The translations under genes and the position numbers were made by a program. A stretch of DNA of 64,000 bases. Source: Bacteroidales bacterium (GTDB taxonomy: Bacteria > Bacteroidota > Bacteroidia > Bacteroidales > VadinHA17). Position 1 is the stretch's first letter. Each line of letters opens with the position of its first letter. Below, piece after piece: positions 13,687-60,407 of this stretch. The stretch spans positions 24,714-88,713 of the forward strand of contig JAXHLX010000021.1 of NCBI GenBank assembly GCA_034521735.1, in the 5' to 3' direction. The notes below the pieces were generated by a model. The model saw only the letters and a list, made by a program, of their open reading frames with translations, was not told the origin of the DNA and searched no databases.

Positions 13687-14307
13687 TCAATCTGTTATAT
13701 CACCAAAGCCATATCCTTTCTGCATGCATATACCAATAAGTTTTTCAAGTACAGTAAGTGAACATCTGTCTTTTCTGTCATGCAGGACTATAACAGAACC
13801 CGGGCGGATCAGTTTTTCCGCCTTCTGCACTATATAATCCCTGCTGAGAGATAAATCGAAATCATATAGGAGCAGGTCCCAGAAAACTATCTTCACCCTG
13901 TCCTTAAGTCCCCTATACTGCGGCAGGGTAAGCCGGCCATAAGGAGGCCTGAAGAAAGATGAACCACTTAGCTCCGACCCTTTCAGGCAGTTATCGATAT
14001 AATCTTTTCTCCGGCTCTTCCACCCGTCAATATGATGATAGCCATGGTTTGCCACAGAAAAGCCATGGTCCCTTATCATCTCAATACTGCCGGGGTAATC
14101 AGGCATCTTCGAGCCCGTACAGAAAAACACGGCTTTACTGACACCAAAAGCAGAAAGAATATTTATTATCTCTTCAGTGCCCTTTTCAGTGGGCCCGTCA
14201 TCGAATGTAAGGTATACCTTTTTTTCATCACCTTCTGTCTGCCTGAATACAGCATCATTGTACAATAATCTCGCTACCCCGGGGTACCTAAAAAACCGTG
14301 GCTTCAT
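13687..14307 (-). CDS. polysaccharide deacetylase (NodB-type) family protein
   Basis: NodB motifs YLTFDDGP and HGYHH. 4-nt overlap with the upstream DUF2723 gene. Confidence 0.8.
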   Translation of the reverse strand: MKPRFFRYPGVARLLYNDAVFRQTEGDEKKVYLTFDDGPTEKGTEEIINILSAFGVSKAVFFCTGSKMPDYPGSIEMIRDHGFSVANHGYHHIDGWKSRRKDYIDNCLKGSELSGSSFFRPPYGRLTLPQYRGLKDRVKIVFWDLLLYDFDLSLSRDYIVQKAEKLIRPGSVIVLHDRKDRCSLTVLEKLIGICMQKGYGFGDITD

Positions 14308-17300
14308 GAAGGTCTCATAAATAACTCGTTATAATATCTGTCTATATCCTGTTCCATCTGTACTGACAACTCCTCTATCCCCATTCCAAGTGAGGTATTG
14401 AAAAGATTTATCAGGGCCTGCATATTCAGTCCTGTCACATAATCCAGATCATACCTCTGTAAAGGTGACAGTGTAAGCACAAAATCAAGATTTTCCTTTG
14501 CATTATTGATAATATCAGTGCCTATCTCAATAGCTTTTTCTTCTTCACCTATCCTGTAAAAGCCCCGGAAGAGGTTAAGTGAATAATAATCATGTCCCAG
14601 CTTTGAAGCCGGTATCACTTCGAGGCTCCTCTGCAGCACTTCCCCTGCTCTCAGGGTATCGCCCTCTTCAATCAGGGCCTCCGCAAGCATGCCGAACATC
14701 CTGCGGAAATTACTGAACATACGCCTGTTATTCTCATCAAGGTAAACATCAGGATCAGAAGCATTGCCCCATTTAAATTTGTTCATCACATTATCATACA
14801 TCGCCCTTGTATCAATAAAGCCTATATCCTGCGACCTGGTGCCTGTTGTATCAAGGGGTGCCACCCTGTATGCCAGTCCCTCCATCTGAAAATAATCATC
14901 GAGTCCCATATAATTGGATGGCGGAACAGTGCTGGCAAAATATATGGGCCGCTCCCACTTATTTGTGCCTATCATATCCATCACGGCAAGGTTATTCTTA
15001 TATAATTCATTACCGCTGTAGTCCCACACCACAAAATCAAGCATTCTGTCGGCCTGGTAATCTTTTACCGTTCCGTTGGATCTGACTTTTGCCGAATCAA
15101 CAGGTATCAGAAACTGGCTGGAGGGGATATAATTATAATAATCGCCCCTTCCGGAAAAATCCATCTTCCTCTGCCTTTCATCCGACCCCGCCCATTTAAC
15201 AAGCTCAATAATATCAAAGGGCCTGTTAACACGGTCTGTTACCGGCAATTGTTCCCTCTTGCCCGGTTCGTATTTTTCAGGCCCAAGAGTAAACTCCACC
15301 GGCTCTGACTCATAAGCTTCCTGTCTCATCATATTAATATACCAGCCGGCTGAAAGGTAGCTCAGGTTAGCCACCCTGACATCTGTTCTGATACCCTCAA
15401 CATCCTGTGCATACCACACCGGGAATGAGTCATTATCACCATATGTATACAGTATGGCATTCTCATCGCAACTGTTAAGATAATTACTGCCTATATCCCT
15501 TGCTGTGTACCTCCCGGAGCGGTCGTGGTCATCCCAGTTCTGGAAGGCCATAAGCAGTGGCACGGCAACAAGACAGACAGGAAAGGCTACAGCCAGCGCC
15601 AGCCTGTGTGAAAATATTTTCCTGAGATTATCCGTTAAGAAGCACAGACCAAGGCCTATCCATACTGAAAAAGCATAGAATGAGCCGGCATAGGCATAAT
15701 CCCTCTCGCGGGGCTGCAGCGGATACTGGTTAAGATATACCACTATGGCTATTCCGGTCATCACAAAAAGCACGGTAATAACCCAGAAGCCTTTACGATC
15801 TCTCTTATACTGCCATATCATGCCCAGTATTCCAAGTATCAAAGGCAGAAAGAAATAAGTATTCCTGCCCGGGTTGCTTTTTAATTCATCAGGCAGGGCT
15901 TTCTGATCGCCCAGCCTTGAGCTATCAATAAAATCAATACCACTGATCCAGTTTCCATGCATCACATTGCCGTTACCCTGTATATCGTTCTGCCTGCCGG
16001 CAAAATTCCACATAAAATACCTGCCATACATATAGCCCAGCTGGTAAGAGAAGAAAAATCTCAGGTTCTCGGCAAAGGTAGGCACAGTAAATTGCTGTCT
16101 GCCACCCGAGCTGTTAAGTGTGATCTTTTTGCCTTTTACCTGTCCCCAGTATTCATATTCGGAGCGGTGCCTGTCCTCCGGACTGTACATCCTCGGGAAT
16201 ACAGTGGTAAAACGGCTGTCAAACTCGTATTTGTTCTTCATGTAGGGCCTGTATTTATCATCCTCCTTGATATATCCCCCTCTCTCCTTCTCTACATCAA
16301 TAACCGGGGCAGAGTAATAATGGCCGGTCAGCAATGGCGTACTGCCATACTGTTCCCTGTTGATATAATATATCATCGAAAAAACATCAGAAGGATCATT
16401 CTGATTCATCGGGGGACTGGCATTTGCCCTTATCGGTATAAGTGCATATGATGAATAGCCCATCAATATAACAGCAAGAATGGTCAGGACATAATTAAGC
16501 AGTACCCTGCCCTTTCTGATGGAATACCTTATACCCCATATCAGCAGGCCTGTAAGCAGTATAATATAAAAATAAAGACCTGAATTAAAGGGAAGGCCCA
16601 GTCCGTTTACGAAAAAAAGCTCAAACCATCCTGCAACCTTTACGGTGTAGGGCAGCAGGATAAACACCAGCAGGATAAGCATGGCAAAGGCAATCAGCAA
16701 TGCCCTGATAATGCCTTTTGTGCTGACCGGGTTGGACCTGAAATAGTATACCAGCACGATGGCGGGCAATGCCAGCAGGTTAAGCAGGTGTACACCTGTT
16801 GACAGACCCATAAGGTAAGCAATAAGCACCAGCCACCGTCCTGTCAGCCTCTCATCCTTTTCATCTTCCCACTTAAGTATGGCCCAGAAAACCATTGCAG
16901 TGAAAAGTGAAGATGTTGCATATACTTCGCCCTCTGTGGCCGAGAACCAGAAAGTATCCGAGAAAGTAAAACTTAGAGCCCCTGTAAAACCTGCGGCAAT
17001 AACTGTAGCTATACCGGTAAACGAAGGGTCAGCCCTGTCGAGGAACACCTTTCGTGCCAGGTGGGTGATGGTCCAGAACAGGAACATAACAGTAAATGCG
17101 CTTGCCATTGCAGACATGAAATTAATCATCAGGGCTGCATTTGATTCATTCCCGAAACTGAACAGTGAAAAAAAGCGGCCGAGCAACAAAAAGAAAGGCG
17201 CACCGGGAGGATGGCCCACCTGCAGCTTCCATGCAGACAGTATAAACTCACCACAATCCCAGAAACTCACCGTTGGTTCAAGGGTCAGGGTATAAACCAC

Positions 17301-17369
17301 CAATGAAACAAGGAAAACCGTCCAGCCCGATATAATATTCGATCTTCTGAAAACCAGATTATAATTCAT
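14304..17369 (-). CDS. DUF2723 / GT-C-fold glycosyltransferase-like membrane protein (1021 aa)
   Basis: The N-terminus TLEPTVSFWDCGEF is the DUF2723 hallmark. About 11 TM segments and a large C-terminal soluble, TPR-like part. Confidence 0.8.
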   Translation of the reverse strand: MNYNLVFRRSNIISGWTVFLVSLVVYTLTLEPTVSFWDCGEFILSAWKLQVGHPPGAPFFLLLGRFFSLFSFGNESNAALMINFMSAMASAFTVMFLFWTITHLARKVFLDRADPSFTGIATVIAAGFTGALSFTFSDTFWFSATEGEVYATSSLFTAMVFWAILKWEDEKDERLTGRWLVLIAYLMGLSTGVHLLNLLALPAIVLVYYFRSNPVSTKGIIRALLIAFAMLILLVFILLPYTVKVAGWFELFFVNGLGLPFNSGLYFYIILLTGLLIWGIRYSIRKGRVLLNYVLTILAVILMGYSSYALIPIRANASPPMNQNDPSDVFSMIYYINREQYGSTPLLTGHYYSAPVIDVEKERGGYIKEDDKYRPYMKNKYEFDSRFTTVFPRMYSPEDRHRSEYEYWGQVKGKKITLNSSGGRQQFTVPTFAENLRFFFSYQLGYMYGRYFMWNFAGRQNDIQGNGNVMHGNWISGIDFIDSSRLGDQKALPDELKSNPGRNTYFFLPLILGILGMIWQYKRDRKGFWVITVLFVMTGIAIVVYLNQYPLQPRERDYAYAGSFYAFSVWIGLGLCFLTDNLRKIFSHRLALAVAFPVCLVAVPLLMAFQNWDDHDRSGRYTARDIGSNYLNSCDENAILYTYGDNDSFPVWYAQDVEGIRTDVRVANLSYLSAGWYINMMRQEAYESEPVEFTLGPEKYEPGKREQLPVTDRVNRPFDIIELVKWAGSDERQRKMDFSGRGDYYNYIPSSQFLIPVDSAKVRSNGTVKDYQADRMLDFVVWDYSGNELYKNNLAVMDMIGTNKWERPIYFASTVPPSNYMGLDDYFQMEGLAYRVAPLDTTGTRSQDIGFIDTRAMYDNVMNKFKWGNASDPDVYLDENNRRMFSNFRRMFGMLAEALIEEGDTLRAGEVLQRSLEVIPASKLGHDYYSLNLFRGFYRIGEEEKAIEIGTDIINNAKENLDFVLTLSPLQRYDLDYVTGLNMQALINLFNTSLGMGIEELSVQMEQDIDRYYNELFMRPS

Positions 17370-17472
17370 GTGATTATATTTTATTTATTTCATTGGCCAC
17401 ATGGAACTTACCATTAAAAAATAATCATACTCTTAATGTGAAATAATGATGATTTTTAAATGGACGTTTCAT
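17370..17472 (-). repeat. conserved leader module, copy A (abuts the ATG of the DUF2723 gene)
   Basis: Minus strand reads ATGAAACGTCCATTTAAAAATCATCATTATTTCACATTAAGAGTATGATTATTTTTTAATGGTAAGTTCCATGTGGCCAATGAAATAAATAAAATATAATCAC, then ATG. It is 100/103 identical to copy B. Confidence 0.85.
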
Positions 17473-20536: not shown

Positions 20537-21476
20537 ATGCCCAGAACAAATTTCAATGAATTATTAGATGCAGGTGTACATTTCGGTCACCTCAGAAGGA
20601 AATGGAATCCGGCAATGTCTCCCTATATCTTTATGGAGCGTAACGGTATCCATATTATCGATCTTGAAAAAACAGAACAGAAGATTGAAGAAGCGGCATC
20701 TGCCCTGAAGCAGATAGCAAAGTCAGGCAAGAAGATTCTTTTTGTGGCAACAAAAAAACAGGCTAAGGATATCGTTGCTGAAAAAGTAAAGGAGACAAAT
20801 ATGCCTTATGTCACCGAGCGCTGGCCGGGTGGTATGCTTACCAATTTCCCCACAATCAGGAAAGCGGTAAAGAAGATGTCGGCTATTGATAAGATGGCAA
20901 CGGACGGCACCTTCACCAATATGTCAAAAAGAGAAAAGCTTCAGATAACCCGCCAGCGAGCCAAACTTGAAAAAATGCTGGGTAGCATAGCCGACCTTAC
21001 CAGACTGCCTGCAGTTCTTTTCGTAGTAGATATCACAAAGGAATATATTGCTGTAAGAGAAGCTAAAAAGCTGGATATACCCAGTAATTGCAATTGTTGA
21101 TACCAACTCGGATCCCAATGCGGTGGATTTTCCCATACCGGCAAATGATGATGCCTCCAAATCAATATCTCTTATCGTGGATATCATGTGTAAAGCCGTT
21201 GAAGAAGGGCTGAACGAGAGAAAGACGGAGAAGGAAAAAGAATCCTCAGGCAAAGAGAAAAGAGGGTCTAAAGGAACAAAGGCACAGCCTAAAAGGATAA
21301 GATCAGTAAAAGTTGAATCTACTGATAATAATGAAGATGAGGCAATAACAGCAGAAACATCAAGCAAAGAGGAGAAGGCAAAGGAAGAGAGCGGACAGAC
21401 AAAAGAAGAGAAGACAAAAGACGAGGGCGAAAAAACAAAGGAAGAGAAGTCCGACAACGAGTCAGACGATAAATAA
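20537..21476 (+). CDS. rpsB: 30S ribosomal protein S2, interrupted by a 1-nt insertion near 21080-21082
   Basis: ORF 20537-21100 (GVHFGHLRRKWNP..ERWPGGMLTN..EAKKLDIP) continues in the +1 frame as VIAIVDTNSDPNAVDFPIPANDDASKSI (ORF 21123-21476). The span is 940 nt, which is 3n+1. A long Lys/Glu-rich C-terminal tail follows. Confidence 0.88.
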
Positions 21477-21507: not shown

Positions 21508-22339
21508 ATGGCTGCAATAAGTGCTGCTGAAGTGGCAAAACTCAGAAAAATGACAGGAGCAGGGATGATGGACTGTAAAAAAGCCCTGCAGGAAGCTGAA
21601 GGTAATTTTGATAAGGCTGTGGAAATAATCAGGAAGAAAGGCCAGGCTGTGGCCTCCAAACGGGCTGACCGCGAGGCAGGTGAAGGAGTTGTGCTTGCAG
21701 GGGTATCAGGTGATGGCGGATTCGGTGCTATAATCGTTCTTAACTGCGAAACTGATTTCGTGGCCAGGAATGCCGACTTTGAAAAACTGGCAAATGAAAT
21801 ACTGGATAAAGCACTGGAGAACAAACCCGGAAGTCTTGATGAGCTGAAGGAATATTAAACTCGGTGATCAGACAATAGAAGAAAGGGTGATTGAACAGAT
21901 AGGGATAATTGGAGAGAAACTGGAATTATCTTATTACGACTTTATAAAGGCCGCCTATGTTCATGCTTATATCCACCCTGGCAATAAGCTGGCTACCATA
22001 GCAGGCTTTAATAAATCCGGACTGGACACCCAGGTATATAAAGATGTTGCAATGCAAATAGCGGCAATGAACCCGGTGGCAATCGACAAGGATGATGTTA
22101 CACAGGAAGAAATAGATAAAGAGATAGAGATAGGTAAGGAGCAGGCACGCCGCGAAGGCAAGCCGGATAATCTTCTTGAGAAAATAGCCATGGGTAAACT
22201 GGGTAAATTCTTTAAAGAGAACACCCTGCTTAACCAGGATTATGTAAAAGACAATAAACAAACTATCAAACAGTTCCTTAATTCGGTTGATAAGGACCTT
22301 ACCGTAACCGGTTTTAAAAGGTACACTCTGAACGATTAA
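21508..22339 (+). CDS. tsf: elongation factor Ts, interrupted by a 1-nt insertion at 21848-21856
   Basis: ORF 21508-21858 (AEVAKLRKMTGAGMMDCKKAL..NCETDFVARN) and ORF 21887-22339 (IGEKLEL..HPGNKLA..AMQIAAMNP) are the N- and C-halves of EF-Ts in adjacent frames. The span is 832 nt, which is 3n+1. Confidence 0.88.
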
Positions 22340-22428
22340 GCTGAGTGGAGCTGCTGATCCGGATATCCGGATTTTGTTCCAAGGTTACACTCTGAACGAT
22401 TAAGCTTTACGGGACTGCTGGTCCAGAT
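22319..22428 (+). repeat. 64-bp tandem duplication covering the last codons and stop of tsf
   Basis: ACACTCTGAACGATTAAGCT occurs at 22323-22342 and 22387-22406. The following ~20 nt are also related (GGAGCTGCTGATCCGGAT vs GGGACTGCTGGTCCAGAT). Confidence 0.8.
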
Positions 22429-22445
22429 AAAAAATAATACACTTA

Positions 22446-28924: not shown

Positions 28925-29458
28925 ATGGCAGCTGACAAACAAATTATCAGAAGGATAAGGAACGGGGATATCAAAGAATTTGAAACCCTGTTCCGTTCTT
29001 CTTATAATCCGCTGGTTGCCTATGCACGGACCATACTAAAGGATACAGACACCTCGGAAGAGATTGTACAGGAGTTGTTTTATGTCTTGTGGCGCGACAG
29101 GGAAAAAATAGAAATAAAAACTTCGGTCAATGCCTATCTTTTCCGTTCAGTATATAACAGGTGTATGCATTATATAGATCATAAAAAGGTGATGGGAAAA
29201 CATGAGAATGAGGTAAAGAAAAGCCTGCAAAGAAACTACCAGGATCCTGAAGATGAGTACCATTATAAGGAACTGCACGAAAAAGTGGCCGGTATAATTG
29301 AAAGGCTGCCCGGACGCTGTGCAAAGATTTTTTGTATGAGCCGCTTTGAAGGGCTTAAATATGCCGAGATAGCAAAAGAAATGTCCATATCTGTCAAAAC
29401 GGTAGAGGCAAACATGAGTAAAGCATTAAAAGAGTTCAGGAAAGAATTATCAGCATAA
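28925..29458 (+). CDS. RNA polymerase ECF-type sigma-70 factor
   Basis: Region 2 (YNPLVAYARTIL..EIVQELF) and region 4 HTH (CAKIFCMSRFEGLKYAEIAKEMSISVKTVEANMSKAL). Confidence 0.88.
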   Translation: MAADKQIIRRIRNGDIKEFETLFRSSYNPLVAYARTILKDTDTSEEIVQELFYVLWRDREKIEIKTSVNAYLFRSVYNRCMHYIDHKKVMGKHENEVKKSLQRNYQDPEDEYHYKELHEKVAGIIERLPGRCAKIFCMSRFEGLKYAEIAKEMSISVKTVEANMSKALKEFRKELSA

Positions 29459-29460
29459 AG

Positions 29461-30420
29461 ATGAAAACACAAAAAGAAAAAAACAGTAACAGTGGCAACA
29501 TGGAAAGGATGATGACTGAGGAATTCCTTTCCGGGCAAAAGCAATCAGTTCAGAAATACTGGAAGGAAATGGATGAGATAAAAGAAAAAAGTGAAAAAGC
29601 AGATGTTGATATAGCATGGGGGAAGCTTTATAACAGGCTTGACAGGGAAAAACTCATTAAGGGAAGGAAACGGAATATACTCACTGAACCTGCATTCAGG
29701 ATTGCCGCATCAATAATCCTTATTATAGGTCTTTCACTTACAGGTATATATTATCTAACAGGAGGCTTTGACAAGGGTAAAAACATGATTATAACCGCAG
29801 GTGCTGACCGTAAAAATGTAAGGGTTGACCTGCCTGACGGAAGCGTGGCCTTCCTTAACAGGGAGTCAAGTCTGGAGTATCCTCTCAGCTTCGGTAGAAC
29901 GAACAGAACGGTAAAACTGGAAGGAGAAGCATTCTTTGATATAGGACCCGAGGCAGACAGGCCTTTTATTATAGATGCCGGTAAAGCAAATATAACAGTG
30001 CTTGGAACATCCTTTAACGTGAATACCAGCGATAACAGAGTGGAGGTATTTGTTACTGACGGCAAAGTGGCCCTTAAAAGCAATGATAACGAGCATGCAG
30101 TCACTCTTGAACCGGGAGATATAGGATCACTAACTGATAACGCAGCCTCGAAAGACATAAATACTGATCCCAACTACCTGTCATGGAAAACAGAAATACT
30201 GAAATTTGACGGTGACAGTCTGGGTAAAGTATTTTCAGACCTGCAGAAAGTGCATAATATAAGTATTGAACTTGAGGATGAGAACATAAGTGAACGAAGG
30301 CTTACCTCAACATCCATCTTTAATAAACAATCGCCGGAAACAATAATACGTATTATTTGTACTACCTTCAACCTTGAATATGATAAGCAAGGAAACGTTT
30401 TTTACCTGTATACTAATTAA
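29461..30420 (+). CDS. FecR family anti-sigma factor / transmembrane sensor
   Basis: Single TM (FRIAASIILIIGLSLTGIYYL), a FecR domain (GEAFFDI..ITVLGTSFNV) and a C-terminal STN-interacting-type domain. Starts 2 nt after the sigma gene. Confidence 0.85.
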   Translation: MKTQKEKNSNSGNMERMMTEEFLSGQKQSVQKYWKEMDEIKEKSEKADVDIAWGKLYNRLDREKLIKGRKRNILTEPAFRIAASIILIIGLSLTGIYYLTGGFDKGKNMIITAGADRKNVRVDLPDGSVAFLNRESSLEYPLSFGRTNRTVKLEGEAFFDIGPEADRPFIIDAGKANITVLGTSFNVNTSDNRVEVFVTDGKVALKSNDNEHAVTLEPGDIGSLTDNAASKDINTDPNYLSWKTEILKFDGDSLGKVFSDLQKVHNISIELEDENISERRLTSTSIFNKQSPETIIRIICTTFNLEYDKQGNVFYLYTN

Positions 30421-30435
30421 CGCTTGAATAATTGA

Positions 30436-32010
30436 ATGGATGTATTAAACTATGTCAAGAAAAATAATACACCAAAGAAGATTGTTATAACTCTTATCCT
30501 TATAACAGGCTTTTCCTTTGCCACGGCACAGGAGGGTAATGTTCTTGAAAGCAGGCTTACACTCAGGCTGAATAATGTCAGCATTTCAAACATCCTTAAA
30601 ACCATATCCCGCCGCACAGCTTACCATTTCACTTACGACACTGACCTTATTGAACCCGGCAGGATCAGTACCGTCAGAATGACTGACAGGCCACTTAAAA
30701 ACATCCTTGACACTCTCTTTTCTGACAGGAAGCTGGACTATTCAATTATTGATAACCACATAATAATATACCGACCGGTAAGCGATTCAACCCCCCTGAT
30801 CAGGGAAGAAGGAAGAAAACCGGTTTATACACTTTCAGGGGTAGTCACAGATGCAGATAACGGTCAGCCCCTGCCATATGCAAGCATAGGCATTAAATCC
30901 AGGGGCCTGGGTACCGTCTCAAATTACGAGGGGGAATTTGACCTTAACCTGTCAGGGGATTTTCTCGATGACACCCTCGTCATATCATATATGGGATTCT
31001 ACAACCGCATGATACCTGTTAACCAGGCCATAAACAGCCACTATAATATTGAGCTCACAAGGAAATATGTTCCCATACCCGAGGTAATAATAAGAAACCG
31101 ACAACCCCTTGAACTGATAAGGTATGCAAAGGAACATTTAACAGATAACTACGGTAGCAGCCCGGTACGGATGACAGCTTTTTACCGCGAATCGGTGTCA
31201 AAAAAAGATAAAATACTTCTCTACTCAGAGGCCGTTCTTGAACTGTATAAAAGCTCATATGCAGCCACCCTGTTAAACGACCAGGTAAAAATATATAAAA
31301 GCCGCAAGATCAATAACCTGGATCAATCCGACACACTCACCTTTAAGTTAAAGTCAGGGCTGGACGGCTGCCTTTCCCTTGACGGGGTAAAAAACACATT
31401 CGACTTTCTCAGGGAAAAGAATTTTAATGATTATGATTATAATATGACTGATATTATCAATATCGGAGACGAAGCGGCCTTTGTTATTGAATTCGAACAG
31501 AAAGAAACCGTTAATGACCTGGCACTGCTCAAAGGTGTTATATATATCAATACAGCTAACTACGGAATACATGGGGCTGAGTTTGAAATTAACAGGGAAC
31601 ATATCGATAAACTTGAGAGAACAGTGATACAGCGAACAGCCCGCGGGTTCAGGGTAAAAGCACGCTCAATCAGGTACAGAGTTAATTACCGGTATATCAA
31701 CGGCCGGTATTTCCTGAACCACGTAAGAGGGGATCTTGAATTCTTTGCAAGGAAAAAAGGCAGCCTCTTCGGAAACCAGTACAGTATATTCTTTGAGATG
31801 GCAGTTAACGATATCGATACTGTTAATGTTGAGCGTTTCGACAGGGAAGAGCGGGCCCCCGTACATTCAATCTTCTCGGAGACCATAGACGGCTATGACC
31901 CTGAATTCTGGGGCACGGATAATTTTGTGGCACCGGAGGAAAGCATCAGGGAAGCGCTTTCAAGAATAAATGCCCGGCTGGGCGAATACACCACTAATAA
32001 CTTCCAATAA
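30436..32010 (+). CDS. STN-domain plus CarboxypepD_reg-domain protein lacking a TonB-dependent-receptor plug/barrel (524 aa)
   Basis: Signal peptide; an STN-like segment (LTLRLNNVSISNILKTISRRTAYHFTYDTDL..LKNILDTLFSDRKLDYSIIDNHIIIY); a CarboxypepD_reg segment (LSGVVTDADNGQPLPYASIGIKSRGLGTVSNYEGEFDL); then the domain shared with 27612-28904. Confidence 0.75.
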   Translation: MDVLNYVKKNNTPKKIVITLILITGFSFATAQEGNVLESRLTLRLNNVSISNILKTISRRTAYHFTYDTDLIEPGRISTVRMTDRPLKNILDTLFSDRKLDYSIIDNHIIIYRPVSDSTPLIREEGRKPVYTLSGVVTDADNGQPLPYASIGIKSRGLGTVSNYEGEFDLNLSGDFLDDTLVISYMGFYNRMIPVNQAINSHYNIELTRKYVPIPEVIIRNRQPLELIRYAKEHLTDNYGSSPVRMTAFYRESVSKKDKILLYSEAVLELYKSSYAATLLNDQVKIYKSRKINNLDQSDTLTFKLKSGLDGCLSLDGVKNTFDFLREKNFNDYDYNMTDIINIGDEAAFVIEFEQKETVNDLALLKGVIYINTANYGIHGAEFEINREHIDKLERTVIQRTARGFRVKARSIRYRVNYRYINGRYFLNHVRGDLEFFARKKGSLFGNQYSIFFEMAVNDIDTVNVERFDREERAPVHSIFSETIDGYDPEFWGTDNFVAPEESIREALSRINARLGEYTTNNFQ

Positions 32011-32065: not shown

Positions 32066-33076
32066 CTAATAACTCTCAAGAATCCTGTACAGCTCTGTAA
32101 GGTCCGGTGTCAGTATTATTTCGGTACGCCTGTTCTTCCTTCTTGCCTCCGCTGTTTTAGCATCCTCAACAGGCAAATATTCACTCCTCCCTGCTGCCGT
32201 CAGCCGCCGGGGATTAATACCGGTGCCGTCAAGCAACACCCTCACAACGGTTGTGGCCCTTTTAACACTTAAGTCCCAGTTATCCTGTATGGGTCCGCCC
32301 GAAGAGATATACGGTACATCATCAGTGTGACCCTCGATGGTTATCTGTATGTCAGGATTATTTTTCAATACAACAGCCAGCTTCTTCAGTGCATCACGGC
32401 CATTGGCATCAATATTATAGCTACCGGTCTGAAATAGCAGTTTCTCTTCAAGAGAAACATATACCTTCCCGTTTTTCATCGATACGCTAAGCCCGTCCCC
32501 TTCAAAACCAAACAGGGCATCTGACACCTTGTTCTTCAGGTCTTTCACTATCCTTGTCTGGTCCTCCAGTATCTGCTCCAGCTCGCTTAGCCTTTCATCC
32601 CTCTTCTCCAGCTCATAGGCCAGCTCATCAAGGGCAGCCCTCTTGGCCTCCATATTCATCTCCAGCTGGCGCATCAGATCCTCCTTGTTCTGAAGATTCT
32701 CCTGGGCCACCTGCAGTTCCCTCAGCAGACGCCTGGTCTCGGCAACATTACCACGTATAAGATCTTCCTGGGCTTTCTGCAAATCGGAATAGCGCTTGCT
32801 GATATCATTATATTCAGCCATAGCCCGGTCAAGCTCCTCCTGCAATGACTCCTTCTCCTGACCCATACCGGACAGCTCTTCCTCCAGCGACCTAATCTTT
32901 TCCTTCATCTCCCTGTTGCTCATAGAAAGATCAAGATTCTCCGTCTTAAACTCATCACGCTCATTCATATACTGAACACTCTTGTCATGCAGGGTCTTAT
33001 ACCTTCCCCCGGGAACACATGACACAAAAGCAAAAACGGTTAACAGAAAAAATATCAGGTATTTTATATTATTCAT
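32066..33076 (-). CDS. OmpA family lipoprotein with long coiled-coil region
   Basis: Lipobox FAFVSC, a ~170-aa heptad-rich region, and a C-terminal OmpA domain (GHTDDVP..NWDLSVKRATTVVRVL..NRRTEIIL). Confidence 0.85.
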   Translation of the reverse strand: MNNIKYLIFFLLTVFAFVSCVPGGRYKTLHDKSVQYMNERDEFKTENLDLSMSNREMKEKIRSLEEELSGMGQEKESLQEELDRAMAEYNDISKRYSDLQKAQEDLIRGNVAETRRLLRELQVAQENLQNKEDLMRQLEMNMEAKRAALDELAYELEKRDERLSELEQILEDQTRIVKDLKNKVSDALFGFEGDGLSVSMKNGKVYVSLEEKLLFQTGSYNIDANGRDALKKLAVVLKNNPDIQITIEGHTDDVPYISSGGPIQDNWDLSVKRATTVVRVLLDGTGINPRRLTAAGRSEYLPVEDAKTAEARRKNRRTEIILTPDLTELYRILESY

Positions 33077-33179
33077 GTGATTTTATTTAATTTATTTCAT
33101 TGGCCACATGGAACTTACCATTAAAAAATAATCATACTCTTAATGTGAAATAATGATGATTTTTTAATGGACGTTTCAT
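33077..33179 (-). repeat. conserved leader module, copy B (abuts the ATG of the OmpA-like gene)
   Basis: 100/103 identical to copy A. Flanks on both sides are unrelated. Confidence 0.85.
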
Positions 33180-33315
33180 GGCAGTCCTTTTTAAACAATT
33201 ATCAGTAATCTGCGATAACTTATCGCTTAATGATACAAATATACATCAATCACAAAAATAACAATTTCCCTGTTCCTGCACATAAACCAAATGTTAATTG
33301 TATTTATATCTTTTA

Positions 33316-35661: not shown

Positions 35662-37875
35662 CTATTTAAGATGCCTCTCAAGGTAATCAGTATATTGACT
35701 CATCAGCAGCATATAGGTTGTCATATCGGTTGCCAGCCCGTGTGCCCCCGGCGGGTATATCTTAAGATCAAAATCCTTACCCGCCATATTTAAGGCATTG
35801 ACCAGCTGAAAGGTATGCTGAGGGTGTACATTCTCATCCATCAGTGAATGGGCCAGCAGCAGGTGCCCCTGAAGGTTTGCCGCATGTGTTATTACCGCAC
35901 TCTGCTTATACCCTTCCGCATTATCATCCATCAGTCCCATATACCTCTCCGTAAGTATACAGTCGTAATACAGGTGGTCGGTTACCGGGGCGGCGGTAAT
36001 CGACACCTTGAAGACCCCCGGATGTGTCAGCATTGTGTAGCTGGACGTATAACCGCCGTAGCTGTGGCCACGTATAGCCATATTATCGCCGTCAATCCAG
36101 GGTTTGGACGCCATGTATCTGGCTGTCTCAACAAAATCATTCGACTCCCATTTGCCCAGCTGCCTGTGAACAATCTTTTCAAACTCGTAGCCATAGCCGC
36201 CATTACCCCTGTTATTCACAGATGCAATAAAGAAGCCCTGCTGCGCCAGCCACTGGTGCCAGCCGTTAGTTCCAAAGGTATTGAACACACCCTGTGATCC
36301 GGGACCTCCATATATGTCAAGAACCAGCGGGTATTCTTTGGTTTTGTCAAAATCAAGAGGTTTTATCAGATAGCCGTCCAGCTTCTGACCATCAGTTGTT
36401 ATAAAGCTGAACATCTCCCTGGGAGCATACTCATGAACATCAAGATACCTCAGCACTTCGCTGTTACCGGCCAGCTCCTCTATCTCTTCTCCTTCTGTGC
36501 TCATCAGCGAAACCACTGCAGGTGTATTAACATCCGAATAAGTGTCAATATAATATTTGCCATTATCCGAAACATTCACCCTGTGGTTACCTGCAGCTGT
36601 TGTAAGCCGCTTCTTCCTTTTACCCTTGAAATTTATGCTGTAAAGATTCTGTTCAGTGGGAGCCACCTCAGTAGATACATAATAGATAATTCCCTTATCC
36701 GTATCTATTGCTTCTATACCTTTCACCTCCCACTCGCCTTCCGTTACCTGGTTTATTATATTTCCGCTGTAATCGTAACGGTAGATATGTGCCCAGCCAT
36801 CACGCTCCGATATCCAGAAAAACTCCTGCAGATCTTCCGGGAAATAGATAAGGTGCAGGTTGCCGGCAAAGAAATCAAAAATGTCGATCCATGCATCTGA
36901 TTGCTCTTCCATCACCAGCTCACTGCTGCCACTGTTAACATCATAAAAGCGTATGGTCATCTTGCTCTGTATACGGTCCATCCACATAAGGGCAAGGGTA
37001 TTGGGCTTTGATGTCCAGTAGATACGGGGTATATAGCCTCCGTTTATATCTGTATCAAGCCATTTTTTCGTGTTATCCTCTGTATCTATCACTCCTATCT
37101 TAACCTGTGGCGGGTTATCTCCGACCTTTGGATACGGTACCTCCATATATTCCGGGTGGTGACCGGAAAAATCAGTAAGTTTATATATCGGCACCTCTGT
37201 TTCATCTGATTGCCAGTAGGCTATATACCTGCTGTCGCCCGACCATGACCATCCCTGTACCAGGCCAAACTCCTCCTCCTGGGCCCAGCCGAAACGGCCG
37301 TTATAAACCTGATCACGGGCATCGCTTGTAAACCTTTTATGCTCACCGCTTTCAAAGACAAAGCCGTAAAGATCACCCTCCTTGCCATAACCCAGCTTCT
37401 TGCCGTCAGGCGAGATCTCAGCACTGAAGGCCTGCTCAACTATCAGGTCAAGACTCTTGTCTTCAAGGGAATAGACATAATAGTCAGAGTTGCCTGAATA
37501 CCTCCAGATGGGATTGAAATTACACTGGAACAGGATACGGCTGAAATCAGTGGTCCATGCAAATGACACATACCTGAAAGGCTCTTCGCTGCCCGGGAAT
37601 TTAAGGTTTTCACTTGTAAAAACCATTTCTTCCTCCCCGGTATCCACCGTTCGTATCCATATCTCCTGTGCATTCTGGGAGTTACGGGTAAAGGAGAATC
37701 TATCTCCACCCTCAATCCATGTTATATTTGAAGGAGTCCCGCCAGTCCTAAGCTGCCCGGCAGAGGAGAGAGCCTCCTGCAGGCTTGAGTAAAGCTCTTT
37801 TTGCGCCTGTACTGATGCAGGTGCTGTCAGTAACAGCGACAATACAATAATGATAAGACCTTTAATGTTTTTCAT
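35662..37875 (-). CDS. dipeptidyl-peptidase IV-type S9 family peptidase, exported
   Basis: Signal peptide, a DPP-IV-like N-terminal propeller, and the triad context GHSYGGY, MDENVH and PGAHGL. Confidence 0.85.
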   Translation of the reverse strand: MKNIKGLIIIVLSLLLTAPASVQAQKELYSSLQEALSSAGQLRTGGTPSNITWIEGGDRFSFTRNSQNAQEIWIRTVDTGEEEMVFTSENLKFPGSEEPFRYVSFAWTTDFSRILFQCNFNPIWRYSGNSDYYVYSLEDKSLDLIVEQAFSAEISPDGKKLGYGKEGDLYGFVFESGEHKRFTSDARDQVYNGRFGWAQEEEFGLVQGWSWSGDSRYIAYWQSDETEVPIYKLTDFSGHHPEYMEVPYPKVGDNPPQVKIGVIDTEDNTKKWLDTDINGGYIPRIYWTSKPNTLALMWMDRIQSKMTIRFYDVNSGSSELVMEEQSDAWIDIFDFFAGNLHLIYFPEDLQEFFWISERDGWAHIYRYDYSGNIINQVTEGEWEVKGIEAIDTDKGIIYYVSTEVAPTEQNLYSINFKGKRKKRLTTAAGNHRVNVSDNGKYYIDTYSDVNTPAVVSLMSTEGEEIEELAGNSEVLRYLDVHEYAPREMFSFITTDGQKLDGYLIKPLDFDKTKEYPLVLDIYGGPGSQGVFNTFGTNGWHQWLAQQGFFIASVNNRGNGGYGYEFEKIVHRQLGKWESNDFVETARYMASKPWIDGDNMAIRGHSYGGYTSSYTMLTHPGVFKVSITAAPVTDHLYYDCILTERYMGLMDDNAEGYKQSAVITHAANLQGHLLLAHSLMDENVHPQHTFQLVNALNMAGKDFDLKIYPPGAHGLATDMTTYMLLMSQYTDYLERHLK

Positions 37876-37995
37876 GTGATTATATTTAATTTATTTCATA
37901 TGGCATGGAACCGCTCGTTCCTCGCTCTCACAAGAAAACTTTAAGCATTCTTGTTTGCGAAAATTTAATTCTTAAATTTTTAATAGACGTTTCAT
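37876..37995 (-). repeat. conserved leader module, copy C (abuts the ATG of the DPP-IV gene)
   Basis: Minus strand reads ATGAAACGTCTATTAAAAATTTAAGAATTAAATTTTCGCAAACAAGAATGCTTAAAGTTTTCTTGTGAGAGCGAGGAACGAGCGGTTCCATGCCATATGAAATAAATTAAATATAATCAC, then ATG. Same terminal boxes as the other copies, different core. Confidence 0.8.
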
Positions 37996-40503: not shown

Positions 40504-40587
40504 GCCCGGATGGCGGAATTGGTAGACGCGCTGGTCTCAAACACCAGTGGCCGCGAGGCCGTGCCGGTTCGACCCCGGCTCCGGGTA
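40504..40587 (+). tRNA. tRNA-Leu (anticodon CAA)
   Basis: Hand-folded: anticodon stem CTGGT/ACCAG with loop CT-CAA-AC; long variable arm GGCC-gcga-GGCC; T arm GCCGG-TTCGACC-CCGGC. Confidence 0.88.
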
Positions 40588-40752: not shown

Positions 40753-42042
40753 TCATAATATACAGATGAAAATCTCCCTCTTCAGGCAGCCTATTGGAAC
40801 TACCAACACACCATCAGACCGTCTGTATGCAACATGACCTCCTGTGAGTACCATAAGAAAAGAAGGACTATTCATCTTTGCTTTATCAATTTTTTCACTG
40901 AGCTTTAATAAGTTAGCAGCAGCTTCGTCAATTTGCTTCATGCCAAGTTTAACTTCAACAGCAGCCCACCGACCATCATGAAGTTTTAAAATAAAATCTG
41001 CTTCCAATTCTGATTTATCCCGATAGTGGAATACTTCTCCATCAAGAGCCTGGCTATACACTCTCAAATCACGCGTACACAGGGACTCAAATAAGAACCC
41101 AAATGTTTCAAAGTCCCTTAAAATCCCCTGAGCATTAGTGCGCATTGCAGCTGTTGCTATTGATGGATCAACAAATTGGCGTTTGTGTGACGTGCGTATT
41201 GCCGTCTTTGAGCGAAGTGAAGGTTGCCAGGCAGGGACATCTTCAATAACAAATAATCTGCGGAGGGCATTGAGATATGAAGTCAATGTCTTATTTGTTA
41301 TTGATGTCTCGTTAACCTGCATATCGCCCATAATCGTCTTCGCTGTTGCAAGAGTGGAAACATTTCTAGCCAACGATTGTAACAACACCCGAACTCTTTC
41401 AGGGTCTTTTTCAATCCCATCCACACGCTGAATATCCATGTTTATTATAGCATCGACATAGTTCATTGCTGTTCGTGTAGACTCTTTCCCGGACACAACG
41501 GCAGCGGGCCATCCTCCCCTGCAAATTGCATTTGCTATTTGATCTATTGTTAAAATACTCTTTGCTCCAATCTCCGTTTCTCCATTAAACAAATCTTTGA
41601 GAGATACTTTCCCATTTGATTCTCCAGACTCAAACAAGCTCATGGGCCGCATAAGCATTCTGGCAATTCTTCCCGTTCCAGAATGAGCAACTCCATCGTC
41701 GGTGGGTGTTGCTGAACCGGTAAGAATAAACTGCCCCATCAAGCCTCGTTTATCGACGGCAAATCTTACAGCATCCCGAAATAACCGGGGCCATCTGCCA
41801 CTCATCAAGAAGCAAAGGGGGATTTCCCTCTAACAGCAGCGATGGTTGAGTATCTGCCATAGCCAAATACCCGGGCCCCTCATCAGGATCCTGCATATAT
41901 ACAACACTTTTTGCTTTTTGTAAAGATGATTCTGTTTTACCACACCACTTTGCTCCTTCAATAAGCACTGCCCCTGTGGATTCAGAGTAAACTTTCGAGT
42001 AGCTATATCACTAATACGAGATATGTATTTACCAGTTTTCAC
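40753..42042 (-). pseudogene. AAA-family ATPase (AAA_14/DUF4143-like) with two compensating homopolymer frameshifts
   Basis: Three ORF pieces (41830-42042, 41750-41968, 40753-41808). The frame changes at the C4 run 41971-41974 and the G4 run 41787-41790. The corrected reading gives ..LNPQGAVLIEGAKWCGKTE..LLLDEWQMARLFRDAVRFAVDKRG..FILTGSA. Confidence 0.7.
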
Positions 42043-42423: not shown

Positions 42424-43629
42424 TTATAGTTTCATCTTGTAAATCAAGAGTATATCGTTATCATCCGTTTTGATAGATTCTGCCAGCATCTCCAGTTTAG
42501 GAATGATATTCATATCTTTTGTATCCTCAATTTTCTTTCTGAGAGCATCGATAAATGTGATAGCAGGGTAGTGGAATATTATGTATTCATTATTATAGAT
42601 GAAAGGTCGTCTGCTTTCTGTAATGTCAAACCGGAAGTCATTGATTATCTCAAAAAAGAAGGCTTCCCCGGAATCTTTATCCACAGCAAGGAGTTTTGTT
42701 GAATGTGCCTTACCGTTTATCGTTACTGAAAGCAAATAATGATTAGCTGTCTCTCCAAGTAATTTGATACTGTAACAGCCCTCTGTTGCTGCAAGGATGT
42801 TTTCAAATCTACCCGGTCCGGTTGAACTCCTGGCTTCCCTGATCTTTGCTTCATCAAACTTATATCTATCTGTGAATACTGTGGCTACAGGGGTGACCTT
42901 CCCCTCCAATGATAAAGAATATATTGTATCAGATTCTCCAATCTTAAAGTGATAATCTTCATCGAATGGGTATACTATACTTGTGTTAGTTGAATATGTG
43001 AAGTAATCTGACGGTATTCTGTTCTTTATCTTAATAACATTTTCATTATCAATAGTTTTTATGACAATCATATTCCTGGAATCAACATTTCCGGGTTTAA
43101 TGACTTTGTTGTTATGTATTAGTACTCTGTTGGCACCCTGATCATCAGATCGTCCGAACGCATTTATCTTTTTAACTAATTCTCCGGAGTTATTGTATAC
43201 GAAAACCCATCCCTCTTTCGGATGCGAATAGTTGCCTCCAAGCTGCAACCATATTGAATTATCATTTTTATCTATATGAGGAGAAACAACTGAAGTGTAT
43301 TCATCCGGGCCAACTCCTATGCTACCAATGTCTCTGATATATTCACCTGTTGTTGTAAAAAGTTTGGCAGGTTTCTGATCCCTGTCGACAATCAGGATAT
43401 ATTCATCATTGAGCGCAAATTCTGTTGGATTATTGAGCAGTGCCGCTTCACTGGATTCAAGTAATACCATCCTGAATTCCCTGGCTATTTCACTCAGATA
43501 TAATTTTCTGGTCTCAATATTGTCGATATTTACTGAGAGATCAACTTCTGTTTCATTAGCCGTGGAGCCCTTTCTTCCCGAGCAACTGCCAACCAGAAGG
43601 ATGATAGCAATAATGATACTTTTATTCAT
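42424..43629 (-). CDS. hypothetical lipoprotein, possibly 6-bladed beta-propeller family
   Basis: Lipobox ILLVGSCSG. 401 aa with repetitive beta-rich segments. The family assignment is from memory of similar Bacteroidales lipoproteins and is tentative. Confidence 0.7.
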   Translation of the reverse strand: MNKSIIIAIILLVGSCSGRKGSTANETEVDLSVNIDNIETRKLYLSEIAREFRMVLLESSEAALLNNPTEFALNDEYILIVDRDQKPAKLFTTTGEYIRDIGSIGVGPDEYTSVVSPHIDKNDNSIWLQLGGNYSHPKEGWVFVYNNSGELVKKINAFGRSDDQGANRVLIHNNKVIKPGNVDSRNMIVIKTIDNENVIKIKNRIPSDYFTYSTNTSIVYPFDEDYHFKIGESDTIYSLSLEGKVTPVATVFTDRYKFDEAKIREARSSTGPGRFENILAATEGCYSIKLLGETANHYLLSVTINGKAHSTKLLAVDKDSGEAFFFEIINDFRFDITESRRPFIYNNEYIIFHYPAITFIDALRKKIEDTKDMNIIPKLEMLAESIKTDDNDILLIYKMKL

Positions 43630-43737
43630 GTGATTATATTTTATTTATTTCATTGGACACATGCCTGTCTGCCGAACAGGCATGCCCGCCTGCAGGTTGG
43701 TTGTGAAATAATGGTAATTTTTTAATGGACGTTTCAT
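43630..43737 (-). repeat. conserved leader module, copy D (abuts the ATG of the lipoprotein gene)
   Basis: Minus strand reads ATGAAACGTCCATTAAAAAATTACCATTATTTCACAACCAACCTGCAGGCGGGCATGCCTGTTCGGCAGACAGGCATGTGTCCAATGAAATAAATAAAATATAATCAC, then ATG. Confidence 0.8.
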
Positions 43738-43808: not shown

Positions 43809-44147
43809 TTATTTTCTGGCAAAAGATATCCCTATCAGCTTTTCTAAAAAAAAGATGATAATCAGGCAGCTGGCAATTACGGCAACAGGCATTATACTGC
43901 CTGACAGGCTCAGGCCTGATAATACAGTCAAGGATTGTGGTGCAAGGACCAGCGCTATACCGGAGAGCAAGCCAAGAAAGAAAAATATCCATGACAATCT
44001 AATATTCCTGAGAACTGATTTACTCTTTGCCTGTTCCCTGTGTATTCCGGCCATCAGCTCATCCTCAAAATCATTAAAAGGCATCTCGCGGCTGCCATCT
44101 GACAGCAGTTCCCTGAAATACTTATCGTGGTTATTATTATTTTCCAT
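43809..44147 (-). CDS. small membrane protein, candidate anti-sigma factor
   Basis: ATGA overlap with the upstream ECF sigma gene. Cytoplasmic N-terminus followed by two TM segments. No zf-HC2 motif. Confidence 0.6.
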   Translation of the reverse strand: MENNNNHDKYFRELLSDGSREMPFNDFEDELMAGIHREQAKSKSVLRNIRLSWIFFFLGLLSGIALVLAPQSLTVLSGLSLSGSIMPVAVIASCLIIIFFLEKLIGISFARK

Positions 44148-44704
44148 CAGTATAATGTTTTCTTTTCCGTTGATAATAGAAGGTTAAGCTCATGATACAT
44201 ATTCTGCCGGCCGCGGTGCAGCAATACTTTTACCTTTGACACGGTCCACCCTGTCAGCTCCCCTATCTCCTCAATTGAATGTTCCTGTATATAAAAGAGT
44301 GTCAGGGCCAGGGCTTCATTTGAAGAAATATTCGCCATGGCCAGATCGATAAAATATCTTTGCTCTGACTGGCTCAGGCGGTCATGTATTTCCGTATGGT
44401 CTATGCCGGGTACTTCAGCCCTGACGGTGCTCCCCGGGTTTTCCTTTTTAAATTTCCCTGAATATTTTAAAGATTCGTTAATGACAATACGAAAAAGCCA
44501 GGTGGAGAATTCTGAGCTGCCCCTGAATTTGCCCAGCTTGCGGAAGGCAATAATATAAGCTTCCTGTACCGCATCGCGGGCATCATATTCATTTTTCAGC
44601 ACAGACAGGGCAATGGTATATGCCCTGTCCTTATACTGGTGAACAAGATATCTGAAAGCATCAGTGTCGCCATCCAACACTTTTTTAATATACAGTTCAT
44701 CCAT
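44147..44704 (-). CDS. RNA polymerase ECF-type sigma-70 factor
   Basis: Region 2 (FRYLVHQYKDRAYTIA..DAVQEAYI..TWLFRIVINES) and region 4 (ALTLFYIQEHSIEEIGELTGWTVSKVKVLLHRGR). Confidence 0.88.
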   Translation of the reverse strand: MDELYIKKVLDGDTDAFRYLVHQYKDRAYTIALSVLKNEYDARDAVQEAYIIAFRKLGKFRGSSEFSTWLFRIVINESLKYSGKFKKENPGSTVRAEVPGIDHTEIHDRLSQSEQRYFIDLAMANISSNEALALTLFYIQEHSIEEIGELTGWTVSKVKVLLHRGRQNMYHELNLLLSTEKKTLY

Positions 44705-45607: not shown

Positions 45608-46339
45608 TTAGTTTTCAATAAACTCAAAAAGGTAGTTAACATTGCCTATGACTCCCAGCCTGCCTTCGGCTCCTGACACTATACCTACCAGGTAGCCATT
45701 CGTATCAATCACGGGTGAGCCGCTTAGCCCGCCAGGATCAACATTTTCGGTGAGCGTGTTAACATAATAATAGGGTCCCTCATTGCTGAAAACCTTCATC
45801 TTAACCAGTGAAGGCACTCCTTCTTTTTGCCTGTAGGGCCAGCCCACACAATAAATTATTTCATTTTTTTGTAATGGTCTGGTCCTTATCTTCAGAGGGG
45901 TAAAAGAGTCTGGAATATCTCCGGTTTCAAAAATCAGCCAGTCGCGGCTTTTCAGGGTATTGAAATCATCAACCGCCTCATCCCTGTTCTTGTTTATCAT
46001 TTCCCCGAATATCATGTACCTGTCCTTATCCTCTTTAGTATATGCTTTCCATTCCACAAAGTTCTCTCCAAGGTCAATAACCGGTAATTCTTCATGATTA
46101 AAGACAAGGAATATATGCTTGCATGTAATCCCCAGCGTATCATTGCCTGTGTCTACCAGAAATGAATTTCCCACGCCTTCATATGTAGTTTCCCTGAAAA
46201 TAATATCATTTGTAAACACTATATCAGGCCATTCAGAAACAGTCCTGGCAGCCCATTCCTCATTTTCTTCCGCCTCTTTACTATCACTGCATGCTGTTAA
46301 AAGTAAAAATGACAATAGCATAAAAACTAAATTCCTCAT
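45608..46339 (-). CDS. trypsin-like (S1/S1C-like) serine protease lipoprotein
   Basis: Lipobox LLLTACS. His context GITCKHIF and Ser context GGLSGSPVID. Confidence 0.7.
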   Translation of the reverse strand: MRNLVFMLLSFLLLTACSDSKEAEENEEWAARTVSEWPDIVFTNDIIFRETTYEGVGNSFLVDTGNDTLGITCKHIFLVFNHEELPVIDLGENFVEWKAYTKEDKDRYMIFGEMINKNRDEAVDDFNTLKSRDWLIFETGDIPDSFTPLKIRTRPLQKNEIIYCVGWPYRQKEGVPSLVKMKVFSNEGPYYYVNTLTENVDPGGLSGSPVIDTNGYLVGIVSGAEGRLGVIGNVNYLFEFIEN

Positions 46340-46485
46340 AGGTCTGCTATTTTAGGTCTGTTATTTAATGATCCTGTAAGAAAACCAAAGGTATCAAAAT
46401 TCAAATATTATTTAAAGCTTGCTCCGATGAATTACCCCGGCTTTCGAGGGCAGTTTTAATATTTTGTTTTAGGCACTATTATGAC

Positions 46486-60356: not shown

Positions 60357-60407
60357 TTTTTTGTTCTTTCTATTAATTTGACACAAATGATTATTAAAAC
60401 TTGCGCT

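Follow-up and report, generated by a model that had tools for sequence, protein, structure and literature searches.

The window analysed here, a 64-kb stretch of Bacteroidales DNA, carries a 103-nt unit (copy B) directly before the start codon of a gene for an OmpA-family protein. A whole-window repeat search pairs it with copy A and recovers two further copies, C and D, which share only the end boxes (Table 1). Copies A and B are identical at 100 of 103 positions, with mismatches at module positions 15, 91, and 97, and their flanks show only 23% and 35% ungapped identity over 100 nt per side, confirming the sequence-only reading that the two differ at just three sites within unrelated surroundings. 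Patterns built from the end boxes match the window 4–5 times against 0–0.09 times expected from shuffles, an unfiltered covariance model run on the 64 kb finds exactly four copies, and all four end exactly at the ATG of minus-strand genes that are mutually unrelated. When scored with covariance model R1, A and B reach 120 and 121 bits and differ from the majority form in the metagenome-assembled genome (MAG) D1M01_35 at one and two positions, respectively, and are young. Copy C (27 bits) retains both ends around a degenerate hairpin and is old and decayed. Copy D (45 bits) has lost the hairpin's 3′ arm to a deletion and gained a GC-rich hairpin by insertion; this copy is also old, since a decayed copy occupies the orthologous site in a related MAG contig (L056; loci are cited by L number) within synteny that is 86–91% identical. 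This is the one syntenic stretch that the window shares with D1M01_35, the MAG to which L056 belongs. Within it, about 700 bp of the window (45724–46440), covering most of a trypsin-like peptidase gene (45608–46339), has no counterpart in the D1M01_35 contig (L056, 1470–1509).

Table 1. Features of copy B and its surroundings, and the other copies in the window (window coordinates).
Feature	Position	Strand	Description
OmpA-family gene, 336 aa	32066..33076	-	start abutted by copy B
ATGAA, gene-proximal	33072..33076	-	ompA-like start codon + 2 nt; direct repeat of ATGAA at 33175-33179
Copy B	33077..33179	-	103 nt = 5′ ATGAA + 98-nt body; abuts ompA-like gene
P2 3′ strand CACATG	33074..33079	-	last 3 body nt + ATG; pairs with central CATGTG
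A-rich 3′ arm GCCAATGAAATAAATTAAATAAAATCAC	33077..33103	-	unstructured; directly before start codon
Central box AATGGTAAGTTCCATGTGGCCAAT	33099..33122	-	best-conserved part of family; hexamer CATGTG at 33105-33110
P1 long AU-rich hairpin	33118..33170	-	CCATTAAAAAAT-C-ATCAT ... ATGAT-T-ATTTTTTAATGG
Upstream ORF MKRPLKNHHYFTLRV (then stop)	33132..33179	-	opens at distal ATG, ends in hairpin 3′ arm; 15 codons
Two TAnnTTTG matches	33236..33260	-	81 and 64 nt upstream of copy B
Copy A	17370..17472	-	103 nt; abuts TMEM260-like/DUF2723 gene 14304-17369
Copy C	37876..37995	-	abuts DPP-IV (S9) peptidase gene 35662-37875
Copy D	43630..43737	-	abuts DUF5128 beta-propeller gene 42424-43629

Read on the sense strand, the module is ordered as ATGAA, ACGT, an AU-rich hairpin, a central box, an A-rich arm ending in CAC, and the ATGAA with which the gene begins. 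Its body opens with ACGTCCATT... and closes with ...ATAATCAC. There is no complementarity between the termini ACGTCCATTA... and ...ATAATCAC(ATGAA), so that terminal inverted repeats are lacking. Elements are 98–103 nt long and have no coding capacity, the only ORF being a non-conserved one of 15 codons. The long AU-rich stem predicted from the sequence alone does exist (P1; 24% G+C), but the register proposed for it, 6 and 9 bp with a 3-nt bulge, is beaten by one of 12 bp (CCAUUAAAAAAU/AUUUUUUAAUGG), a 1×1 C/U mismatch, and a further 5 bp (AUCAU/AUGAU). The foot of P1 can be extended by AAC/GTT. The hairpin energy is −14.6 kcal/mol in B compared with −10.7 kcal/mol in A, in line with the earlier remark that a substitution in A costs the stem one pair, and the fold z-scores are −3.0 and −1.55, respectively.

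Helices were predicted with RNAalifold from an alignment of 15 diverse family members. Two were returned: P1 with its AAC/GTT extension, in which four of the stem pairs carry compensatory changes, and P2, formed by the hexamer of the central box with the last three bases of the element and the start codon. In this alignment the P1 and P2 structure has 96.8% of cells paired and seven pairs that change on both sides, values reached by none of 500 shuffles, and shifted registers drop to 30–41% paired. A second small hairpin, ATGG/CCAT, that had also been proposed lacks covariation support and is in competition with the foot of P1; RNAalifold gives CAUGUG/CACAUG instead. P2 occurs in five covarying versions (CATGTG/CACATG, CACAAG/CTTGTG, CACTTG/CAAGTG, CATGAG/CTCATG, and CATCCG/CGGATG). 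The element's three terminal bases and the ATG or GTG after them are the complement of the central hexamer, CAYNNG, and every element whose hexamer begins with CAC is followed by GTGAA, never ATGAA. The central CAT, with GTT-C before it, can alternatively pair with the distal junction, ATGAAAC.

The part of the module next to the gene is distinguished by its composition. Its last 25 nt are 64% A, compared with 42% upstream of 49 other genes, and the local folding energy of the 3′ arm is 0 to −1.1 kcal/mol, compared with −3.9 ± 3.5 kcal/mol at other genes. The arm is an exaggerated version of the genome's own start regions, and its composition suggests that it may serve genes as a portable region for initiating translation. 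Across the family the upstream ORF varies in length between 4 and more than 29 codons and is lost in two members, which carry AGGAA in place of the start. Since neither its length nor its sequence is conserved, this ORF is likely a by-product, and a conserved leader peptide was rejected because of the same spread in length and the two losses.

Related genomes show what the site looked like without the module. At the ompA-like locus the window reads ...CTGCC/ATGAA[ACGTCC...ATCAC ATGAA]TAATA, whereas the empty site reads ...CTGCC/ATGAATAATA in L057, L058, and L059–L062. The relatives compared include two at 95–96% protein identity (L057, L058) and three at 81–83%, all of which have the same divergent dxs/ompA-like arrangement; their intergenic region aligns through ...CTGCC and then runs straight into ATGAATAATATAA..., where the window adds ATGAA and 98 nt. 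The closest and the more distant relatives alike have this intergenic region but no module, which is therefore not a leader passed down by vertical inheritance. The suggestion that the 103-nt unit had moved alone is thus upheld by five related genomes that lack it at this locus and by a clean junction flanked by ATGAA, and the comparison of orthologous loci called for in the case of copy B, which finds no inherited module in the relatives, favours mobility over vertical inheritance. The DPP-IV locus of copy C has orthologous starts without the module in L063 and L064, the DegT locus is filled in L024 and empty in L074, and the FAH-hydrolase locus is filled in L049 and empty in L075–L079. All four comparisons have ATGAA at the site and no other conserved flank, and no module copies were found in the module-free relatives L057–L064 and L074–L079 (∼70 kb). 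A cassette encoding a sigma factor, FecR, and a CarboxypepD_reg-domain protein adjoins the ompA-like gene and is kept in all relatives; several ECF sigma factors, some with anti-sigma partners, are encoded in the window at 28925–32010, 44147–44704, and 59919–60986.

The 5′ end of the module, queried against one genome per species, located about 20 module places in MAG D1M01_35, six in Zod_Metabat.1005, and further copies in Zod_Metabat.688, bin.693, Y22 bin.43, and MAG054, all of them Bacteroidales MAGs; the other matches were ordinary genes starting MKRPLK or MKRLLK, or chance. A metagenome scan with the central box yielded nine matches that added seven diverse members, and a covariance model added one more, so that family-wide statistics rest on about 40 copies, all from MAGs or metagenome contigs. 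Copies are near-identical within a genome, and between genomes the hairpin differs in sequence yet stays paired. Insertion is at the pentamer ATGAA in the sense orientation, after which ATGAA stands on both sides; the 3′ neighbour is ATGAA in about 19 of 26 copies and GTGAA in five. Real gene starts, including those of cytoplasmic enzymes, are abutted by approximately 17 of the 22 full copies (∼77%), and the remaining full copies sit behind convergent genes. In the window, ATGAA occurs 17 times at gene starts and 25 times at other non-coding sites, giving an expectation of 40% if insertion were random and intragenic copies were then lost; the observed share exceeds this (binomial P = 5e-4). 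ATGAA is the commonest gene beginning in this genome (Met-Lys/Asn), which accounts for most surviving copies lying exactly at start codons, with the reading frame rebuilt.

Several loci depart from the single full-length form. Tandem arrays sharing one ATGAA are present at L008, L049, L051, L069, and the L065/L072 locus. Hairpin-less short forms of about 45–55 nt stand in tandem before full copies, as the distal copies in L008 (minus strand, ∼6232–6275) and L049; loss of the DNA between GTCCAT and GTTCCAT, which are direct repeats, would account for them. In L011 of D1M01_35 (1264–1391, minus strand), the hairpin interior is the exact reverse complement of the usual one and the flanking parts are unchanged, so that a short segment between the inverted arms has been flipped. 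Nested within the module hairpin is a second family of small repeats (L015, 1327–1493, plus strand; L048, ∼3600–3860, minus strand; Zod_Metabat.1005). It starts just after an internal ATGAA and includes CCGAAATCC..., hairpins of CCCGATTTATCGGG, and AGCGAAGCGATCTCAT-like units in tandem. The nested insertion in L048 was considered as a parent insertion sequence and rejected, as it is another small repeat and not a transposase gene. Module copies also lie at the extreme ends of MAG contigs in L006, L042, L045, L046, L053, and L054, suggesting that the repeat breaks short-read assemblies.

From these features, the module is probably a protein-less mobile element of about 98 nt plus ATGAA, belonging to an uncultured Bacteroidales clade and moved as a single strand under the direction of an internal guide, in the manner of IS200/IS605 elements and PATEs. 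PATEs are gene-less IS200/IS605 derivatives that are mobilised in trans by the Y1 HUH transposase TnpA, and such small, non-autonomous, palindrome-bearing elements are the closest known kind. In IS608, guide sequences adjacent to the hairpin recognise the cleavage sites by base pairing, and IS200/IS605 elements identify both cleavage and target sites in this way (PMC3597680). PATEs lack inverted terminal repeats, target duplication, and coding capacity, and carry near-terminal palindromes (PMC3119063); an IS605-family element alongside which PATEs occur targets the motif TTCAT, which is complementary to ATGAA (PMC10055086). The module similarly lacks terminal inverted repeats and room for a protein-coding gene, places a palindrome near one end, and always lies beside one fixed 5-nt sequence (TTCAT/ATGAA). 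It also forms homogeneous multi-copy families that differ between species, loses its hairpin by deletion between short direct repeats as PATEs do (PMC3119063), and contains an internal sequence complementary to its junctions, where the pairing is indicated by covariation and a role in cleavage would follow by analogy. Complementarity to both junctions and to the 5-nt target makes IS200/IS605-type recognition the most likely mode. There are differences, in that one palindrome of the module (P1) has covariation support where PATEs have two, the same pentamer stands at both junctions, the polarity suggested by the orthologues is the reverse of the IS608 geometry, and the module is strongly tied to start codons, with an A-rich leader and a start codon built in. 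The single palindrome does not exclude descent from PATEs, since single-palindrome “terminal-only” PATEs of 52 bp have been reported (PMC3119063). The two boxes described earlier as the 5′ and 3′ boxes of a leader are the two ends of this mobile element, and a structural requirement of mobility is the simpler explanation for the conserved hairpin.

In the proposed mechanism, the internal guide would base-pair with the element ends and the target, as in IS200/IS605 elements and PATEs, and an HUH-type enzyme encoded elsewhere in the genome would move the element in trans as single-stranded DNA. That the mobilising enzyme is of the HUH type is a conjecture from this analogy; no transposase of any kind is present among the ∼55 ORFs of the window, and no full-length parent element was seen in the examined loci. 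The element would bring the gene-proximal ATGAA with it and leave the native start codon stranded upstream, where it would open the short, non-conserved ORF that always stops inside the element. The gene would then be translated from the new start codon, preceded by the A-rich 3′ arm. Translation start in Bacteroidetes does not rely on Shine-Dalgarno pairing, and an A-rich, unstructured arm may serve as a ready-made translation start region. This would make insertions at start codons tolerable and would explain their excess, although the excess could also be pure selection. Every insertion would turn the old start into an upstream ORF and exchange the ribosome-loading region of the gene, and such elements could retune dozens of genes at once and vary between close strains. 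If the mechanism is true, the transposon would avoid harm to its host, since it restores the start codon and provides a region for translation initiation that suits Bacteroidetes.

Empty sites alone do not show which of the two ATGAA pentamers is native, because the pentamer is repeated on both sides. Comparisons at L024, L049, and L065/L072 suggest that the gene-proximal one is likely borne by the element. The DegT gene, which follows a GTGAA copy in L024, opens with ATGAA in the module-free relative, and the FAH gene behind a GTGAA copy with a CAC guide (L049) starts with ATGAA in five module-free orthologous contigs, which represent three distinct sequences. L065 and L072 are ∼93% identical loci with different, independently inserted copies, and the new copy in L065 has a distal GTGAA, matching the state of the site in L072, and a proximal ATGAA. 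By themselves the empty sites would also fit a 5-bp target duplication, as ATGAA stands on both sides. The flanking pentamers are unequal in both directions in some copies, ATGAA...GTGAA in L009, L024, and L049 and GTGAA...ATGAA in L065, and this pattern of sequences argues against a simple duplication.

The main competing polarity takes the plus strand of the window as the active strand, as in canonical IS200/IS605 elements, and the gene's own TTCAT (ATGAA) as the native left-end target. The element would then run GTGATT...CGTTTCAT, end in its own TTCAT, and slip in upstream of a start codon that is never replaced. On the plus strand the target is followed by a ∼28-nt linker, the guide CACATG 5′ of the hairpin foot, the hairpin, a 9-nt linker, and TTCAT, an arrangement that matches IS608 and PATEs (PMC3597680; PMC3119063, with the longer distance at the 5′ end). 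Measured as linkers on either side of the hairpin, the plus strand has ∼41 nt on the target side against 9 nt on the other, and the sense strand has the reverse: were it active, the hairpin would lie 4 nt from the target-side end and the guide 3′ of the hairpin, opposite to the IS608/PATE geometry. The plus-strand layout fits those elements, but the proximal ATGAA should then be native. Its variability also fits a native target, as the proximal pentamer varies more than the adjoining element sequence (GTGAA in five of 22 D1M01_35 copies, and also ATCAA, GTAAA, and ATGCA), and a GTGAA-flanked copy occurs away from a gene start in L010. Guide-directed choice of GTG starts would further explain why elements with CAC guides are always at GTGAA. 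Against this polarity stand the two GTGAA copies whose module-free orthologues begin with ATGAA and the L065/L072 pair, in which the variant GTGAA is distal, where the element's own ATGAA would be expected. In addition, a CAT guide on a GTGAA target would form a C·A mismatch on the plus strand and not a G·T wobble. We therefore regard the plus-strand polarity as rather unlikely, though it is the strongest of the competing readings.

A more specific form of the mobile-element reading can be put forward only tentatively. Here the module would be a guide-programmed mini-transposon that homes to start sites, with a hexamer that reads CAT for ATG and CAC for GTG. It would insert after ATGAA, carry in a new start codon, and change how the gene it enters is translated, amounting to a portable, self-healing “5′ UTR cassette” with an A-rich leader, possibly moved by an HUH enzyme acting on a single hairpin in a reversed IS608 geometry. 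Our search of the PATE literature returned no description of a tight link to start codons with a built-in A-rich translation start region, and a literature search likewise returned no description of a guide that covaries with ATG versus GTG. Were this mechanism true, it would be a compact natural case of nucleic acid-guided target choice in which guide and start codon co-vary.

The sequence-only reading had treated the module primarily as a regulatory leader whose stem sequesters the 5′ box. In this account, which now appears improbable, the hairpin, the upstream ORF, and the helix at the start codon would exert translational control, the function of the RNA would keep its sequence conserved, and the leader would have spread by duplication or gene conversion. 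The promoter context is compatible with it. TAnnTTTG is the −7 promoter motif of Bacteroidetes, and the first of the two matches upstream of copy B lies within TTGTTATTTTTG, which is invariant in all relatives. With promoter-type motifs 64–81 nt upstream, the element is probably transcribed as part of the 5′ UTR. The module itself contains no sigma-70-like site, no intrinsic terminator, and no TAnnTTTG motif, and a reading of the boxes as ECF-type or sigma-54 promoters was rejected by eye because the spacing is unsuitable. Also in keeping with a leader RNA, the start codon is paired within P2, which changes in step with ATG versus GTG, the ORF begun at the distal ATG stops within the hairpin's 3′ arm, and the non-Watson-Crick pairs are mostly G·U on the sense strand (seven G·U versus two A·C, too few to fix the folding strand).

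The weight of evidence is nevertheless against regulation as the primary role. No Rfam family matches the window at the gathering score, and positions 32950–33300 give only chance-level snoRNA and miRNA matches (E = 0.7–10), leaving no match to a leader RNA even at E = 10. The module is missing from the orthologous genes of close relatives and is thus not needed for their expression, the downstream genes have no common function, and some copies lie away from gene starts, including those behind convergent genes. A regulon of secreted proteins was rejected, as copies precede genes for cytoplasmic enzymes (LpxD-like, DegT, SDR, RlmH-like, and FAH). The upstream ORF is too inconstant in length and presence to point to control, P2 is marginal as an RNA helix (a 25-nt loop closed by 6 bp, which the minimum-energy fold includes for A but not for B), and the old copies C and D have lost the hairpin while their genes remain. 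Finally, dozens of unrelated loci have received a clean insertion at a 5-nt target, which gene conversion does not account for. The element may have an added effect on translation as a side effect, since P2 covers the start codon and the upstream ORF crosses P1. These near-identical “leaders” before unrelated genes are better explained as mobile DNA than as regulation, a caution for the motif-based discovery of regulatory RNAs in MAGs.

A further possibility, which we consider very improbable, is that the element moves as RNA, with a sense transcript copied back or reverse-spliced beside ATGAA under the guidance of the CAT-containing box. All copies at genes are sense-oriented and should thus be present in transcripts, the guide pairs with sequence immediately 5′ of where the element inserts, much like the exon-binding sites of group II introns, and the G·U bias of the sense strand, slight as it is, points the same way. 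At 98 nt, however, the module is far too small for any known self-splicing intron, it matches no ribozyme family, the window encodes no reverse transcriptase, and targeting to ATGAA at gene starts gives the sense orientation automatically.

Other groups of small repeats resemble the module in part. REP/REPIN elements are short extragenic palindromes present many times per genome and thought to be moved in trans by RAYT (TnpA-REP), a single domesticated HUH enzyme that recognises a short motif beside one hairpin (PMC8266576, PMC3333891). To that extent, the module is likewise a short, multi-copy, palindrome-bearing element. It has, however, no GTAG-type motif, its stem is AU-rich and not GC-rich, it forms single units with long asymmetric arms in place of inverted pairs, and it inserts at a defined pentamer and at gene starts, not between convergent genes. 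Membership of the REP/REPIN-RAYT system was rejected on the 24% G+C of the stem, the missing GTAG, and the single units. The Correia repeats of Neisseria, ERIC, and the pneumococcal BOX/RUP repeats are comparable as protein-less repeats of ∼100 nt that end up inside transcripts, and can alter the expression of neighbouring genes. BOX elements share with the module a modular look of conserved ends and a variable middle (PMC3049150). These families differ from the module in having terminal inverted repeats and/or target duplications (TA in Correia) and in lacking a fixed position relative to the start codon, and guide-junction covariation is not known to be described for them. IStrons, which combine a group I intron with an IS605-type element, insert at a pentanucleotide inside genes and limit damage to the host gene (bioRxiv 10.1101/2023.11.20.567912), and the module resembles them in both respects. 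IStrons, however, are kilobase-sized, carry protein genes, and repair the message by RNA splicing, whereas the module repairs the gene at the DNA level by regenerating the start codon.

The remaining candidates can be dismissed briefly: an invertible DNA switch (only the L011 loop is flipped, a single case, and the spacer is far too short for a recombinase), a tyrosine-recombinase cassette (the surroundings of ATGAA lack dyad symmetry and targets are conserved over 5 nt only), an origin in plasmids or phages (neither collection gave a match), and a classical MITE derived from a DDE element (terminal inverted repeats are lacking and the flanking repeat is always the same pentamer, not a variable target duplication).

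Some further features of the window lie apart from the module. A tRNA gene (40504–40587) stands beside a shortened AAA_14/DUF4143 ATPase gene (40753–41808, 351 aa); in the relative L064 the full-length AAA_14/DUF4143 gene (421 aa) adjoins a phage-type integrase, which hints at the remnant of an integrated element in the window. Two 49-nt direct repeats that are 80% identical and 64 nt apart (22317–22365 and 22381–22429) lie between convergent EF-Ts and deoxyhypusine-synthase-like genes, and are unmatched in any fetched locus. The genes for ribosomal protein S2 (20537–21476, plus strand) and EF-Ts (21508–22339, plus strand) are each split into two ORFs by apparent single-base indels; in one example ...KKLDIP is followed by SNCNC and a stop, with PVIAIVDTNSDP continuing in the next frame. 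These splits are either assembly indel errors or real frameshifts in essential genes.
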